From Dehalococcoidia bacterium (GTDB taxonomy: Bacteria > Chloroflexota > Dehalococcoidia > Lucifugimonadales > Australimonadaceae), in NCBI GenBank assembly GCA_965249185.1, contig CBDFLS010000002.1, positions 2,004,368 through 2,068,367 of the forward strand: a stretch of DNA of 64,000 nucleotides, in the 5' to 3' direction. Of this stretch, positions 5,151 through 63,480 are shown piece by piece. Below the pieces are notes generated by a model. That model ran no database searches, was not told where the DNA came from, and saw only the letters and a list, made by a program, of their open reading frames with translations. A program made the translations under genes and the position numbers. The first letter of the stretch is position 1; each line of letters begins with the position of its first letter.

Positions 5151-6422
5151 TCAGGCCTGCGTCATCTCCTTGATCCGGGCCTCAGCCACCTTGCGTCCGG
5201 TGTCCCGTAGCAGCAGCCGGTCCTGCTTCTCCGTAGGCGCCGGAGGGATACGCAGCACCTTATCGTGGGCGCATGTGAGGATGGTTTTTCCCTCATCGAA
5301 CGTGACGCCTGGGGGGCTCTCGCCGCGCTGCACCGCCCGGATACCGTCCCTGATCTGGTTCCTCGTCTTGATAACCCCACGATCGGTGTAGGCCAGGTTC
5401 TCCAGGGCGTGAACGGCGATGGGCCGCTGGCTGATCTGCGCATCGTCGTCGCCTGGCGTACGCTGCCGCTCCTCATAGGGGCGTCCCCCTAGCTGACCGA
5501 AAATAACATCTCTTGCGGGCTCCACGCCATCGCGGACCGGGCGGACACCGAACCGGATGCAAGTCGTATCGTCCACGGGCACCGTCCACGCTACCCGCTC
5601 GGTGCGGCCCGGGTAGTCCCGTTTGAACCGTTCTTCAGCGCCGTGGTCAACGTCCGGGCCCGACGTGATGTTCGGGGGCAGGTAGTCGCCCACGCGGACC
5701 CATATCAGGTCCCCAGCTCTGCGCACGTCCACATCTATCAGGCCAAGGGGGCTCTCCAGGAACTCCCACTCGCTCGCTTGTGCGAAGTCCTCGGCGAACC
5801 CACGGTTGCCCTCGATGCTGTGAAGAAAGAGCAGGTGAGACGGGTCCCAGATGTTGTCGTGCATCTGGAGCCAGTTGCAGGGACGGGTGAAAGACGCGCC
5901 GGTCTCAAGATGGTAACCCGGCATGGTGTAGAAGTCGTACATGGGGAAAGCGGGCCTCCTGTCCGGCGGCCCCATGTAGGCAAACACGATCCCCGCGCAC
6001 TCATGGGTGGGGTACGCGCCGTGGTAGAGGCGGTCCTTCAGCGTGCTCTCCGCCGGCTCTCCGGGCGTCTCCAACACCTTGCCAGTCACGTCGTAGAGCC
6101 AGGCGTGATAGCAGCAGCGGATGCCCCGCTCCTCTATCTGGCCGAACTCCAGCGACGTGCCCCGGTGGGAGCAGTGGAGCTCCAGGAGGCCGGCCCGTCC
6201 GGAGCGGTCGCGGAACGCCACCAGGTCTTCGTTCATGATGCGGATGGCTTTGGGCAGGTCCTTCAGGTCCTCTGATAGGGCCACGGGCTGCCAGAAGCGG
6301 CGGAGCCACTCGCCGCCGGGCGTGCCGGGGCCGGCATGGGTGAGCTCCTCATCTTCCGGGGGCACGTCGCTGTGGAAATATCCGCTGTAGGGAGTAGTGA
6401 GAAACGGAACGTTCGTTGTCAT
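5151..6422 (-). CDS. Rieske [2Fe-2S] non-heme iron oxygenase, alpha-subunit type (paralog A)
   Basis: Rieske motif CSHRGTSL...CCYHAWLYD and a C-terminal catalytic domain with WDPSHLLFLH. ATG 6422 is preceded by AGGAG. No beta subunit is adjacent. Confidence 0.9.
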   Translation of the reverse strand: MTTNVPFLTTPYSGYFHSDVPPEDEELTHAGPGTPGGEWLRRFWQPVALSEDLKDLPKAIRIMNEDLVAFRDRSGRAGLLELHCSHRGTSLEFGQIEERGIRCCYHAWLYDVTGKVLETPGEPAESTLKDRLYHGAYPTHECAGIVFAYMGPPDRRPAFPMYDFYTMPGYHLETGASFTRPCNWLQMHDNIWDPSHLLFLHSIEGNRGFAEDFAQASEWEFLESPLGLIDVDVRRAGDLIWVRVGDYLPPNITSGPDVDHGAEERFKRDYPGRTERVAWTVPVDDTTCIRFGVRPVRDGVEPARDVIFGQLGGRPYEERQRTPGDDDAQISQRPIAVHALENLAYTDRGVIKTRNQIRDGIRAVQRGESPPGVTFDEGKTILTCAHDKVLRIPPAPTEKQDRLLLRDTGRKVAEARIKEMTQA

Positions 6423-59150: not shown

Positions 59151-60461
59151 CGGGGGGGGGGGGGACTTGAGCGACTCCTCCGCCACCTGCCGGCCCAGGT
59201 CCCGCAGCAGCCGCCGGTCCTCCTCCGGCGTGGGCGCCGGGGGAACGCGCATCACCTTGTCCAGGACGTAGCTGGGGATGGCGCCCGCGTCCTGGCCGGG
59301 GTAGGGGATGCCGGCGGGGTCGTCCCCCTCCTGGACCGACCGGATGCTGCGCCGGACCATGTTCCGCAGCATGATGATCCCCCGGTCCGTGGTGGCCAGG
59401 TGCTCCAGGGCGTGGACCTCGATGGGCCGCTGGCTCACCTGCGCGTCGTAGTCGCCGGGCACCTGCTGGCGCTCCTGGTAGGAGCGCTGGTCCGATTGGC
59501 CGAAGCCGGTTTCCCTGCCGCGGTCCTCGTCCTCGTTGGCCCACCAGAAGCCGATGTGCATGCAACTGGTGTCGTCGATGGGCACGGTCCACCAGGTGAG
59601 CCAGGATCCCTTGTTGGGACTGCCGTCCGCGGACTTCCCGCCCTCTAGATGCTTGGAGAGCTCGGGCATCTGGTTGATGTTGGGAAAGATATAGTCGCTG
59701 ACCAGCACCCACACGAAGTCTCCGATGCGGCGGGAGTCGATGCTCACCATACCGACGGGTGTCTCCATGTAGTCCCACTCCACGTCCCGGTGGCCCACGC
59801 TTTCCATGCCGAGCTGCGTGGCGAAGTCGACGTTGCCCGCCATGCTATGGAGAAAGTAGAAGTGGGAGGGGTCCATGGCGTTCTCGCGCACCTGGAGCTA
59901 GGTGCAGGGCCAGAAGAGCCGGACATTGGTGAGGAGCCGCTTGCCCCCCAGCTTTGGCATCTTCTCATAGGTGTCGAAGACGGGGAACTCGGGGCGCTTC
60001 TCCGGCGGGCCCATGTAGGCGAAGACGAGCCCGTTGTACTCGTGAGTGGGGTACGCGCCGTGACAGAGCCGGTCCTTCAGCGTGCTCTCGGCCGGCTCGC
60101 CGGGGGTTTCCAGGATCTTGCCATCCACGTCGTAGAGCCAGGCGTGGTAGCAGCAGCGGATGCCCCGCTCCTCTATCTGGCCGAACTCCAGCGACGTGCC
60201 CCGGTGGGAGCAGTGGAGCTCCAGCAGGCCGACCTGGCCCGAGCGGTCGCGGAACACCACTAGGTCCTCGCCCAGGATGCGGACGGCCACGGGCAGGTCC
60301 TTCAGCTCGTCCGAGATGGCCACGGGATGCCAGAAGCGGCGAAACCACTCGCCGCCGGGGGTGCCGGGGCCCACGTGGGTGAGCTCGGCGTCCTCGGAGG
60401 GCACTTCGTTGTGGAGGTACGCGCCGTAGGGGACGTTGAGGAACGTGGGCTGCGTGGCCAT
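59147..60461 (-). pseudogene. Rieske [2Fe-2S] oxygenase paralog B, disrupted (in-frame TAG; C-terminus depends on C13 tract length)
   Basis: The N-terminal half (60461-59901) ends at TAG 59898-59900, where paralogs A and C have Trp (CNW-LQV). The same frame continues as LQVRENAMDPSHFYFLH. With 13 C the frame runs on to 58602, antisense to the neighbouring gene; with 12 C it would stop at 59147-59149. Confidence 0.75.
59152..59164. repeat. G13 / C13 homopolymer
   Basis: Thirteen consecutive G, starting one base after the TAG stop (59148-59150) of the plus-strand gene and lying inside the last codons of the minus-strand Rieske gene. Confidence 0.95.
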
Positions 60462-60510: not shown

Positions 60511-61764
60511 CTACGAGCGCTCCTTGATCCGCGCTTCCGTGACCTCGCGGCCCGTCTTCCGCAAAAGACGCTTATCCTCCTCGGGCGTGGACGCCGGCGG
60601 GATGCGGAGCACCCTCTCTTGGGAGTAGGTACGGACGACGCCGTCCCTGCCATAGGCGCCGCTCTGGGAGTCGCCGTTCTTCCCCACGGCACGGATGCCG
60701 CTCCTCACCATGTTCCGCAGCATAATGACTCCCCGGTCGGAAGTGGCCAGGTGCTCCAGCGCGTGGACCGCGATGGGCCGCTGGCCCACCTGGGCGTCGG
60801 AGTCGCCGGGCACCCGCTGGCGCTCCTCGTAGGAGCGGTCGGGCATCTGGCCGAACCCCGCCTTCTTGGAGACCTCCTCCCCGTCCCGGGCGCGCCAGAA
60901 GCCGATCTGCATGGTGTTGGTGTCGTCAATGGGCACCGCCCACCGGGTCACCGTGGGCCGGTTGCCGTCCCGCTGGGCCACGTTCTCGCCCAAGTCGCAG
61001 CCCTGGTGCATGTTGGGAGCGACGTAGTCGGTCACCCGGACCCAGACCAAGTCGCCGACCCGCCGGGTATCGATGTACACCATCCCTATGGGCGTCTCCA
61101 TGAAGTCGATCTCGCCCATCTGCGCGAAATCTCCGGTGAACCCCTCGTTGCCCTCGATGGCGTGGAGGAAGAGCAGGTGGATCGGGTCCATGGCGTTCTC
61201 GCGGACCTGCAGCCAGTTGCAGGCCCAGATGTAGGGGACGCCGGGCTGCATGTGGTAGCCGGGCATGTCGTAGGTGTCGAAGACGGGGAACTCGGGGCGC
61301 TTCTCCGGCGGGCCCATGTAGGCGAAGACGAGCCCTCCATACTCTCGGGTGGGATAGGCGGCGTGGTGGAGCCGGTCCTTCAGCGTGCTCTCGGCCGGCT
61401 CACCGGGGGTTTCCAAGATTTTGCCGTCCACGTCGTAGAGCCAGGCGTGGTAGCAGCAGCGGATGCCCCGCTCCTCTATCTGGCCGAACTCCAGCGACGT
61501 GCCCCGGTGGGAGCAGTGGAGCTCCAGCAGGCCGACTTGGCCGGAGCGGTCGCGGAACACCACCAGGTCCTCGCCCAGGATGCGGATGGCCACGGGCAGG
61601 TCTCTGATCTCCTCCGAGGAGACCACGGGCTGCCAGAAGCGGCGGAACCACTCGCCGCCGGGGCTGCCGGGGCCCACGTGCGTGAGCTCGGTATCCTCGG
61701 AGGGCACGTCGCGGTGGAGGTACGCGCCGTAGGGGGTGTTGAGGAAGGGGGCTTTGGTTGTCAA
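60511..61764 (-). CDS. Rieske [2Fe-2S] non-heme iron oxygenase, alpha-subunit type (paralog C)
   Basis: CSHRGTSLEFGQIEERGIRCCYHAWLYD and a catalytic domain with NAMDPIHLLFLH. TTG start at 61764 preceded by AGGAGA. It is the C-terminal part of a longer shadow ORF. Confidence 0.85.
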   Translation of the reverse strand: MTTKAPFLNTPYGAYLHRDVPSEDTELTHVGPGSPGGEWFRRFWQPVVSSEEIRDLPVAIRILGEDLVVFRDRSGQVGLLELHCSHRGTSLEFGQIEERGIRCCYHAWLYDVDGKILETPGEPAESTLKDRLHHAAYPTREYGGLVFAYMGPPEKRPEFPVFDTYDMPGYHMQPGVPYIWACNWLQVRENAMDPIHLLFLHAIEGNEGFTGDFAQMGEIDFMETPIGMVYIDTRRVGDLVWVRVTDYVAPNMHQGCDLGENVAQRDGNRPTVTRWAVPIDDTNTMQIGFWRARDGEEVSKKAGFGQMPDRSYEERQRVPGDSDAQVGQRPIAVHALEHLATSDRGVIMLRNMVRSGIRAVGKNGDSQSGAYGRDGVVRTYSQERVLRIPPASTPEEDKRLLRKTGREVTEARIKERS

Positions 61765-61929: not shown

Positions 61930-62796
61930 ATGGCGCAGGTCACGGAGCGATACCGCGATTCCGTCGAGGCGATGGTGGTCATCTCCGACTTCACGCCGCC
62001 CCGAAGCGGCGACACCGCGGCGCTGGAGCGGGTGGGGGTGGTGAACGCGGACTTCATCTGCGCCGCCTATAACCCCGGCAAGCTGGTGAGAGTGGACTCC
62101 ATCGTCGCGGCCCACGCCATCAGGCAGGGGACGGGCAGGGACGTGGTGTTCAACCTGGCGCCCCGCGATATGAACAAGGTGGCCATGCAGTCGTCGCTGC
62201 TGGGCGCGCAGGTGCTGGGGCTGGAGAACGTGATCGTGGTGCAGGGAGACGGCTTCACGGAGCAGGAGCGGGCCCTGGTGAAGCCGGTGGACGACTTCAC
62301 CTCCACGGGCCTTATCGGCGCCATACGTTCCATGAACGAGGGGCTGGACTACCGCGGGTCGAAGCTGCGCTCGCCCACGGGGTTCTGCGTGGGCGCCAGC
62401 CTCGACCTGGCGAGAGAACTGGAGGCGGAGGCGGCGCTGGCACACCGGAAGGTGGAGGCCGGCGCCCAGTTCTTCATCACCCAGCCCATCTACGACCTCG
62501 CGCGCCGGGACCGGTTTCTGGAGCTCTACGAGACGGCGGCGGGCCGCCCGCTGGCGGAGCCGGTCTTCTGGGGAGTGCAGGTGCTGGAGAGGGACGGCAT
62601 CACCCTGGGCCCGGTGCCCGCCAACCTTCTTCGGGAGATGGAGCGGGGCAGAGGTGGGGTGGAGGTGGCCGTGGAGCAGCTGCAAGCCTTCGCGGAGGCC
62701 GGCATGCGAGGGGTATACTTGGTGCCGCCGATTCTGAAGGGCGGGGCCAGGGACTACGAGGCCGCGCAGCGGGTGCTCCAGGCCCTGGGACGCTAG
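61930..62796 (+). CDS. Methylenetetrahydrofolate reductase (MetF/MTHFR)-like protein
   Basis: 288 aa of TIM-barrel MTHFR pattern, including AGAQFFITQPIYD. Only the last third of the 786-aa track ORF is taken as real. Confidence 0.7.
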   Translation: MAQVTERYRDSVEAMVVISDFTPPRSGDTAALERVGVVNADFICAAYNPGKLVRVDSIVAAHAIRQGTGRDVVFNLAPRDMNKVAMQSSLLGAQVLGLENVIVVQGDGFTEQERALVKPVDDFTSTGLIGAIRSMNEGLDYRGSKLRSPTGFCVGASLDLARELEAEAALAHRKVEAGAQFFITQPIYDLARRDRFLELYETAAGRPLAEPVFWGVQVLERDGITLGPVPANLLREMERGRGGVEVAVEQLQAFAEAGMRGVYLVPPILKGGARDYEAAQRVLQALGR

Positions 62797-62814
62797 CTTC
62801 GTCCGAGGTGATGC

Positions 62815-63306
62815 ATGGCTGAGAAGCTACAGCAGAACGACCGGTTCCCTTCCATGGAGCTGAGGCTCGTGGGCGGCGGGACGGTGCGGATTCCGGATGA
62901 GATTCCGACCCGCTACGCCGCGGTCCTCTTCTACAGGGCGTACTGGTGACCCTACTGCATCCGGCAGTTGGCCGCGTACGAGCAGAGGAAGGCGGAGCTG
63001 GAGGCGCTGGGGGTCACTATCTATGCCGCCAGCGCCGACCCGCTGGAGAGGGCCCAAGAGGTCGCGGGCCAGGGGCTCACCTTTCCCGTGGCCTACGGCT
63101 TCACCAGGGAGGAGGCGGAGCTCATCGGCGCCTGGTGGGAGGAGACGAGGGGCTACGTTCAGCCCTCGGAGTTCTTGCTGGGGCCGGAGGGCCTGGTGCT
63201 GGGCTCGCTGTACGTCTCGGGTCCGGTGGGGCGCATGGACGTCGAGGAGGTGGTGCGATTCATCACGAACCGGGAGCGGAGGCGGCTGGAGCAGGCGGCG
63301 GGATGA
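62815..63306 (+). CDS. Redoxin / AhpC-TSA-like thiol-disulfide oxidoreductase with in-frame TGA at the first Cys of the CxxC motif (candidate selenoprotein, otherwise a pseudogene)
   Basis: ATG 62815 after GAGGTGA. The frame reads ...RYAAVLFYRAYW-TGA(62947-62949)-PYCIRQLAAYEQRKAELEALGVTIYAASAD... A hairpin at 62955-62985 follows the TGA. Confidence 0.55.
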
Positions 63307-63403
63307 GCGGCGCTCGCCTCCTGGTAACGCATGGCGCCGGCGGCAAGAGGCCCGATGCAAACGCATCGGGCCTCTTGCTAACCAACGCTTTTAGGGAGAA
63401 AGA

Positions 63404-63480
63404 TGGGGTGAGCGGAGGGATTTGAACCCTCGATCTCCAGGGCCACAACCTGGCGCCTTAACCACTAGGCCACGCCCACC
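63404..63480 (-). tRNA. tRNA-His (anticodon GTG)
   Basis: Reverse complement GGTGGGCGTGGCCTAGTGGTTAAGGCGCCAGGTTGTGGCCCTGGAGATCGAGGGTTCAAATCCCTCCGCTCACCCCA. Has the extra G-1 paired to C73, anticodon loop TTGTGGC, and encoded CCA. Confidence 0.9.

Follow-up and report, generated by a model that had tools for sequence, protein, structure and literature searches.

A probable selenocysteine codon and a small candidate SECIS hairpin in a peroxiredoxin-like gene of a Dehalococcoidia bacterium

Near the 3' end of a 64,000-nt stretch of Dehalococcoidia DNA (referred to here as the window), a reading frame is broken by an in-frame TGA directly before the residues P-Y-C, and the question is whether this codon ends translation, is the scar of a mutation, or is read as an amino acid. 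A sequence-only reading of the same DNA had proposed a single frame running from ATG 62815 to the stop TGA at 63304-63306, with TGA 62947-62949 as its sole break, and a ribosome-binding site, GAGGTGA. Both were recovered in our analysis: translation gave one such frame (...AVLFYRAYW*PYCIRQL..., within the longer stretch ...RYAAVLFYRAYW*PYCIRQLAAYEQ...), and the Shine-Dalgarno-like element lies at 62806-62812, directly 5' of the ATG. The mechanical list of open reading frames contained a 44-aa N-terminal piece and a 112-aa piece (62968-63306) and nothing else of the gene. GC3 was 0.87 upstream and 0.93 downstream of TGA 62947, which is the coding signature of a 66% GC genome. From comparative sequence analysis, we estimate a probability of about 0.92 that 62815-63306 encodes one 163-residue selenoprotein of the Prx (AhpC/TSA) fold with a Sec45-Pro-Tyr-Cys48 centre. 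The corresponding features are as follows.

62806-62812, + strand: Shine-Dalgarno-like GAGGTGA, read from the sequence, 2 nt before the ATG
62815-63306, + strand: predicted coding sequence of a 163-residue Prx-like UxxC selenoprotein with Sec as residue 45 (reading frame, Pfam, orthologue alignment)
62947-62949, + strand: UGA, predicted Sec codon (U45) that opens the U-P-Y-C centre (TGA in 80/80 and 71/78 loci)

The selenocysteine interpretation, which had been put forward from the window sequence, was supported by conservation of the TGA among relatives, coding constraint on both sides of it, frozen synonymous sites, and covariation in a hairpin. The best 80 loci from a collection holding one genome per species all belonged to Chloroflexota, mostly Dehalococcoidia, and aligned with the window protein over residues 1-160 at 54-69% identity. 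TGA was present at the aligned codon in all 80, in the context FYRGHW-TGA-PYC. A second scan with Cys-form queries returned 78 loci, 71 with TGA and seven with TGT or TGC (L081-L087), indicating that Cys is the alternative residue at codon 45. Sec and Cys forms numbered 151 and 7, respectively, among the Chloroflexota loci retrieved (approximately 95% UGA). The claim that the TGA occupies the column of a redox cysteine held against full-length Cys homologues, the more distant relatives in the protein alignment, in which residue 45 is the first Cys of W-C-P-Y-C.

The two halves of the gene are under equal coding constraint. In an alignment of 81 sequences (80 orthologues and the window), every member has a start codon that precedes the TGA by 43-46 codons. 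Identity of the 80 orthologues to the window protein was 59% over residues 1-44 and 63% over residues 46-163. Per-site differences at codon positions 1, 2, and 3 were 0.26, 0.19, and 0.52 upstream of the TGA and 0.21, 0.20, and 0.50 downstream, so that variation followed the order position 3 > 1 > 2 in both halves.

Synonymous-codon entropy in the 81 sequences was near expectation except directly after the UGA, and it collapsed at codons 50-53 (window 62962-62973), which are frozen as CGG CAG TTR GCC. Arg50 was CGG in 78/81 sequences (0.23 bits versus 2.03 expected), Gln51 was CAG in all 81, and Ala53 was GCC in 77/79. Leu52 was TTG in 69 sequences, TTA in 12, and CTN in none, and 79% of Leu codons gene-wide are CTN. 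In the seven Cys-form loci, codons 50-53 were all variable. Closer to the UGA, Pro46 was CCC in 55/64; a pairing of this CCC with a downstream GGG was considered and dropped because the two did not co-vary across orthologues. The frozen stretch, CGGCAGTTGGCCG (62962-62974), coincides with the upper stem and loop of the hairpin drawn in the sequence-only reading. The composite pattern TGA-N12-CGGCAGTTRGCCG occurred once per locus in approximately 100 fetched loci, and only at the selenoprotein gene.

62962-62974, + strand: core hairpin, candidate SECIS, CGGC 62962-62965 paired with GCCG 62971-62974 around loop AGUUG 62966-62970 (synonymous constraint, covariation)

The core hairpin begins 12 nt after the UGA, and its loop begins 16 nt after the UGA. 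Criteria of the bSECISearch type place the apical loop approximately 16-37 nt from the UGA with a G in the loop. The SECIS-compatible geometry claimed earlier was confirmed: the stem-loop follows the UGA directly, and its loop lies within that range and contains G. In the E. coli fdhF SECIS, the hairpin lies just 3' of the UGA, with a spacer of 11-12 nt before the minimal stem and G-U in the loop. The window hairpin resembles it in lying directly 3' of the UGA, in its 12-nt spacer, and in the G-U of AGUUG; in contrast, at 4-7 bp the core of the window family is far shorter, lacks a bulged U, and does not resemble fdhF in sequence.

Across the orthologues, 95% of cells in the core hairpin were paired, and none of 500 shuffles reached the observed level of covariation. 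The flanking pair 15:29 was G-C in 53 sequences and U-A in eight (Fisher p = 8.5e-7, uncorrected for phylogeny). In L282, which carries R-R-L-L-D, the hairpin GCCGUCU-GUU-AGACGGC stands in the same register, with pair 18:26 changed from G-C to U-A, and L377 forms CCGGCU-CCU-GGCCGG, again in the register of the core hairpin. In the QL[GV]S subfamily, a separate hairpin, GG.AGCU-NNNN-AGCU.CC, stands a few nucleotides further downstream (columns 17-34); a double synonymous compensation (CAA...AGT) is seen in one of its sequences, and 50 of 500 shuffles were as good.

Folding energy added little, since in DNA of 66% GC testing the energy of one sequence carries no information. For the 45 nt that start with the UGA (62947-62991), the minimum-energy structure is exactly the fold claimed previously, with its stems (62955-62958/62982-62985 and 62962-62965/62971-62974) and loop 62966-62970.

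62951-62988, + strand: extended imperfect hairpin including the lower stem 62955-62958/62982-62985 (minimum-energy fold of 62947-62991)

This fold had an energy of -14.6 kcal/mol and z = -1.41, and 18 of 200 shuffles folded as well. When 60 nt from the UGA were folded, another structure was obtained (z = +0.46), no better than shuffles. The core in the window has 4 bp (-5.5 kcal/mol, z = -0.66), its length being limited by a C-C mismatch at pair 15:29, a state common to three other distinct orthologue sequences (L040 and L074 among them). This stability is unexceptional; it is conservation across species, not energy, that puts the hairpin beyond chance. The hairpin as first drawn survives in part: its upper stem is conserved, including the synonymous sites, but its lower stem CUGC/GCAG is not conserved in orthologues and, showing no co-variation, was dropped as a conserved part of the SECIS. 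Rfam gave no SECIS-type family in the window, either at gathering score or at E <= 10.

A second small hairpin overlaps the core hairpin, and the two are mutually exclusive.

62954-62968, + strand: alternative hairpin ACUGC/GCAGU (RNAalifold consensus)

The gene could therefore encode a selenoprotein whose working SECIS is ACUGC/GCAGU, or a bistable pair of this hairpin with CGGC/GCCG. The alternative hairpin is the RNAalifold consensus, is 99% paired and, within the main subfamily, as well conserved as CGGC/GCCG. Its z-score in the window sequence is the better one (-2.68), and it is the stronger of the two hairpins in the subfamilies RRQLAS and QL[GV]S. However, ACUGC/GCAGU shows no double (compensatory) changes, and its pairing is kept through wobble-tolerated C/U variation at the third positions of the Tyr and Cys codons. 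Its loop sequence is variable, and it leaves the frozen GCC of Ala53 unexplained, whereas CGGC/GCCG explains it. The loop lies only 9-13 nt after the UGA, compared with the 16-37 nt given above, and the 5' arm is 7-11 nt away from the UGA, counted from its first base. During decoding, with the UGA in the A site, this arm would probably be inside the mRNA channel of the ribosome. In L282, ACUGC/GCAGU is destroyed and the register of CGGC/GCCG is kept by compensation. The divergent subfamilies represented by L282 and L377 thus favour CGGC/GCCG, and we infer from these comparisons that it is the hairpin in use; a working role for ACUGC/GCAGU, alone or as half of a bistable pair, appears unlikely.

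On the preferred reading, with CGGC/GCCG as the signal, the ribosome would meet UGA 62947 while the hairpin CGGC-AGUUG-GCCG (62962-62974) recruits SelB, presumably by direct binding, together with Sec-tRNA(Sec). Sec would then be inserted at the UGA instead of termination, and translation would end at TGA 63304. The window holds three tRNAs (Arg, Arg, and His) and no tRNA-Sec, and tblastn with E. coli SelA, SelB, and SelD probes gave no match in the 64 kb or in the first 160 loci. The same probes were validated by full-length matches beside selC in other bacteria. In a stretch of 64 kb taken from at least 2.1 Mb, the absence of sel genes is expected.

Some relatives do carry tRNA-Sec genes. 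In L038, L039, and L052, a tRNA-Sec lies at a distance of 4-5 kb from the gene (ARAGORN and Rfam RF01852, 70.3 bits against a gathering cutoff of 47), and, among the matches listed, a tRNA-Sec and the gene share a genome in five further pairs of loci (L125/L207, L073/L278, L144/L279, L062/L286, and L034/L311). In L213, a tRNA-Sec at 1858-1953 on the minus strand is followed after approximately 19 nt by a homologue with FYRGHW-TGA-PYC. In total, tRNA-Sec is present in at least nine gene-carrying relatives, and its anticodon in relatives is UCA. In other Chloroflexota, selC has selD, selA, and selB beside it. BSepDB counts Dehalococcoidia genomes, with 46 and 49 selenoprotein genes, among the ten richest bacteria (PMC13326102, Table 2).

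The database record can be read differently, as two products: a 44-residue peptide ending at the UGA and a separate 112-residue protein starting at TTG 62968. A protein search returned 586 relatives, the closest of which were mostly 113-119-residue C-terminal fragments (65-74% identity), with approximately 20 of full length. These closest fragments cover the C-terminal two thirds only and are cut like the 112-residue ORF of the window, so that most database gene calls, and the ORF list likewise, agree with a split. Against this, a split would sever both the redox centre and the fold, which in the structure model described below needs strands 14-40 together with helix 46-57; the putative start TTG 62968 falls inside the conserved hairpin; and conservation in frame extends over the 44 codons before the UGA, with the start codon keeping its distance of 43-46 codons in 81/81 sequences. 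We consider two separate products very improbable.

A TGC-to-TGA nonsense mutation in a decaying pseudogene was the alternative suggested by the state of the neighbourhood, since a broken Rieske oxygenase copy lies 3 kb away. The earlier remark that this Rieske gene is a pseudogene was correct in that the copy (59166-60458, - strand) is broken, but it is not evidence of decay that bears on the selenoprotein gene: the Rieske copy has one in-frame stop, TAG 59898-59900, in place of a conserved Trp codon, and this lesion is a separate event unrelated to UGA or Sec. The window protein itself departs from consensus at eight of 71 highly conserved positions (G8N, G42A, H43Y, R124P, G125E, V127L, A134V, and E161A), where the median is 1 and the maximum 10 (L036 and L060), and the stability of its hairpin is unremarkable; both would be compatible with decay. 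It nevertheless keeps W44, U45, C48, R50, Q51, L52, and the other invariant residues, and its closest relative in the one-genome-per-species collection is 69% identical. With no extra stops or frameshifts and an intact SECIS core, the window copy is read, as far as sequence comparison allows, as a divergent lineage rather than a decaying gene. Moreover, at least 150 loci from different species have TGA at this codon, conservation of the coding type extends to both sides of it, and frozen synonymous sites right after the TGA are not expected of a dead gene. A nonsense mutation is therefore hardly credible.

Translation of the UGA as Trp or Gly (genetic code 4 or 25), assumed by the JGI and ENA gene callers that printed W-W-P-Y-C in several entries (P0001-P0005, P0069, and P0111), has next to no probability: in the DNA behind P0003, P0111, and P0069 each printed W is a TGA, the gene caller's Trp, which is not reproduced under table 11; where homologues have another residue it is Cys, never Trp or Gly; relatives possess a tRNA-Sec with anticodon UCA; and TGA is the true stop of the window gene and of 15/81 orthologues, which shows that the genetic code is not reassigned.

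With the UGA taken as Sec, the protein belongs to the redoxins. The redoxin/AhpC-TSA identity proposed at the outset was upheld by Pfam when Cys was put in place of the stop: AhpC-TSA scored 61.6 bits (cutoff 26) over residues 9-128, and Redoxin scored 33.1 bits (cutoff 26.6). The NCBIfam peroxiredoxin equivalogs stayed below cutoff for the window protein (PrxU, 20.1 bits against 270; PRK13189, 18.8 against 211; Bcp, 19.3 against 140; AhpC, 19.0 against 272), as did StoA_CxxC (18.9 bits, cutoff 210) and SelL_rel_redox (18.1 bits, cutoff 120). An AlphaFold model of the Cys homologue P0006, which is 56% identical to the window protein, had a pLDDT of 91.6 and a pTM of 0.87, with strands in 14-40 and an active-site helix at 46-57 that has residue 45 at its cap. 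Its best PDB matches were Bcp4, Bcp1, AhpC2, and archaeal Prx (TM about 0.77-0.84, and 0.77-0.83 when normalised to the query). By this model, U45-P-Y-C48 stands at the start of the active-site helix, as in a UxxC centre.

62956-62958, + strand: TGC, Cys48, predicted partner of Sec45 (aligned to the peroxidatic Cys of 2cx3, 5xbs, and 1x0r)

Cys48 is present in 81/81 sequences. In the alignment with solved peroxiredoxins, it is Cys48 that takes the place of the peroxidatic Cys, and the Thr/Ser of the T-x-x-C motif is matched by Sec45. The peroxiredoxin motif P-x-x-x-T/S-x-x-C is absent from the window protein, whose local sequence is F-Y-R41-A-Y-W-U45-P-Y-C48, with Arg41 at the motif's Pro position. 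The active-site Arg is likewise absent: the invariant Pro117 (V-Q-P-S-E-F-L-L) stands opposite the Arg of A-K-R-A-V-F-I-V in 2cx3, which we take to be the catalytic peroxiredoxin Arg. A canonical peroxiredoxin was rejected as an assignment, since Cys48 rather than Sec is at the peroxidatic position and the Pro/Thr/Arg signature is missing; the same two features point to a Prx-like UxxC thiol:disulfide oxidoreductase. The window protein is thus predicted to combine a Prx fold with a thioredoxin-style U/CxxC centre.

Such a centre suggests a reaction scheme. With Sec capping the active-site helix at its N terminus and Cys48 one turn on, the Sec45 selenolate may attack an oxidised substrate, which could be a disulfide, a sulfenic acid, or a peroxide. 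The intermediate would be resolved as a Sec45-Cys48 selenenylsulfide, and this would presumably be re-reduced by a thioredoxin-type reductant.

Among known systems, the canonical peroxiredoxins (among them the TxxU PrxU of Eubacterium acidaminophilum and Bcp/PrxQ) share the fold and have their peroxidatic Cys at the position of Cys48. They differ in that the Sec of the window protein replaces the Thr/Ser of P-x-x-x-T-x-x-C and not the peroxidatic Cys. In PRX_like2 (CDD cd02970), the centre is CxxC, the second Cys is peroxidatic, and the other two residues of the catalytic triad are absent. The pattern of the window protein presumably fits this description. In contrast, the selenoprotein form listed for cd02970 is UxxS (PMC13188914), whereas the window protein has UxxC.

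The 'Prx-like thiol:disulfide oxidoreductase' with PF00578 and UxxC is a listed selenoprotein family, and it is the 'Prx-like 1' of the GOS and Sargasso Sea selenoproteomes (PMC13188914, Table 1; PMC2398784, Table 2). The window protein corresponds to this Prx-like thiol:disulfide oxidoreductase class of Kryukov and Gladyshev, a family known since 2004-2008; the placement was made by domain and motif description, with WP_010940744.1 as the published representative. Shared features are the AhpC/TSA domain, a UxxC that begins with Sec, the existence of Cys homologues, a hairpin that follows the UGA directly, and presence among uncultured marine and other environmental bacteria. As points of difference, the Chloroflexota clade has a Sec form that far outnumbers the Cys form (151 versus 7 retrieved loci) and a very short SECIS core built on Arg-Gln-Leu-Ala codons.

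For the field, the gene is ordinary: its selenoprotein family is a known one, the wealth of selenoproteins in this bacterial class is known too, and the gene leaves knowledge of selenoproteins unchanged. Its practical consequence is for annotation. Nearly all database entries of this family that were examined are wrong, being either a 112-117-residue fragment or a protein with Trp at the Sec site; taking the UGA for Sec gives back a whole redox enzyme and marks the organism as a selenium user. Across more than 150 species, Sec has almost displaced Cys in one Dehalococcoidia redoxin family, and the RNA signal written into its synonymous sites provides a clean, compact, and well-sampled example. 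A broader proposal, made tentatively and with the odds leaning against it, is that the redoxin of this clade is almost always a selenoprotein by way of an unusually small SECIS of 4-7 bp in Arg-Gln-Leu-Ala codons, and that sister subfamilies have rebuilt their hairpins in place or a few nucleotides away. If this is true, such small hairpins may fall under the thresholds of standard bacterial SECIS finders, and the family would offer a compact natural series on which to test how little SelB recruitment requires. In BSepDB, 12.6% of bacterial selenoprotein genes are without a canonical SECIS.

The flanks of the gene yielded minor observations. Upstream, an MTHFR-like gene (Pfam MTHFR) has its stop at 62796, 18 nt before the start of the selenoprotein gene, and co-transcription of the two is possible given this short gap. 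The MTHFR-like gene, the Rieske oxygenase, and an M17 peptidase are neighbours in the window and are not kept beside the orthologues, so that the context gives no hint of a partner or substrate. A GC3-based screen of the 64-kb window gave no convincing further UGA-interrupted gene. Downstream, the following repeat was found.

63343-63378, no strand assigned: perfect 16-bp inverted repeat between the stop of the gene and the convergent tRNA-His

A terminator scan did not call this repeat, which has no T-run; it is likely to be a transcription-end hairpin.

In public JGI and ENA gene calls of the redoxin family (entries P0001-P0005, P0069, and P0111; loci L281, L282, and L377), Trp was printed at the Sec position. 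The underlying DNA carried TGA at the printed Trp in all three entries checked (P0003, P0111, and P0069), indicating that the callers evidently used a TGA=Trp code on these short contigs. Most other family entries in the databases were cut down to approximately 113-119 residues.

The base 3' of the UGA was C in most redoxin sequences from the window and its orthologues, and the next codon (62950-62952 in the window) was CCC in 55 of the 64 cases encoding Pro. This bias may reflect an influence of the local sequence context on whether the UGA is read as a stop or as Sec. No covariation of this codon with any downstream GGG was detected in the same sequences.

The sister QL[GV]S subfamily (loci L101-L155) shared the motif FFRGAW-U-SYCRRQL[GV]S and was present in two to three copies in some genomes, for example, CBDDDP01 (L113, L115, and L120). 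Unlike that of the redoxin, its hairpin 3' of the UGA had the form GG.AGCU-NNNN-AGCU.CC (columns 17-34), as in the following examples:
L113, 1133-1177: QL[GV]S hairpin
L144, 1133-1177: QL[GV]S hairpin, with double synonymous compensation (CAG...AGC to CAA...AGT)

In L213 (1340-1953, minus strand; uncultured bacterium, CBDDRQ010000136.1), tRNA-Sec was followed approximately 19 nt on, on the same strand, by a redoxin homologue with TGA at the codon equivalent to the redoxin Sec codon; a selenoprotein gene was therefore physically linked to selC. Homologues of selD, selA, and selB lay within 8 kb of selC in approximately 20 Chloroflexota loci among the tRNA-Sec scan matches listed (L287-L375, Chloroflexia and Limnocylindria), whereas this was not so in the Dehalococcoidia loci also carrying the redoxin. 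Thus, the Chloroflexota classes differ in how their Sec genes are clustered.

The following features were located 3' of the redoxin:
63343-63378: perfect 16-bp inverted repeat (GCAAGAGGCCCGATGC / GCATCGGGCCTCTTGC, 4-nt loop) without a T-run, between the redoxin stop and tRNA-His
63404-63479, minus strand: tRNA-His, convergent with the redoxin
63522-63494, minus strand: sigma-70-like promoter (10/12 matches) upstream of tRNA-His
The repeat is probably a transcription-end hairpin common to both genes.

The sequence-only reading had called the neighbouring Rieske gene a pseudogene, and an in-frame TAG was indeed present. Three Rieske-type oxygenase paralogues were compared:
59166-60458, minus strand: interrupted by TAG at 59898-59900
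60514-61761, minus strand: intact, 65% identical to the interrupted copy
5160-6419, minus strand: further paralogue, with Trp at the TAG position
The TAG corresponded to a Trp site (C-N-W-L-Q) in both other paralogues, equivalent to a TGG to TAG change. Because this was the only in-frame stop and the remainder of the frame was unbroken, either this copy was inactivated very recently or the TAG is a sequencing error.
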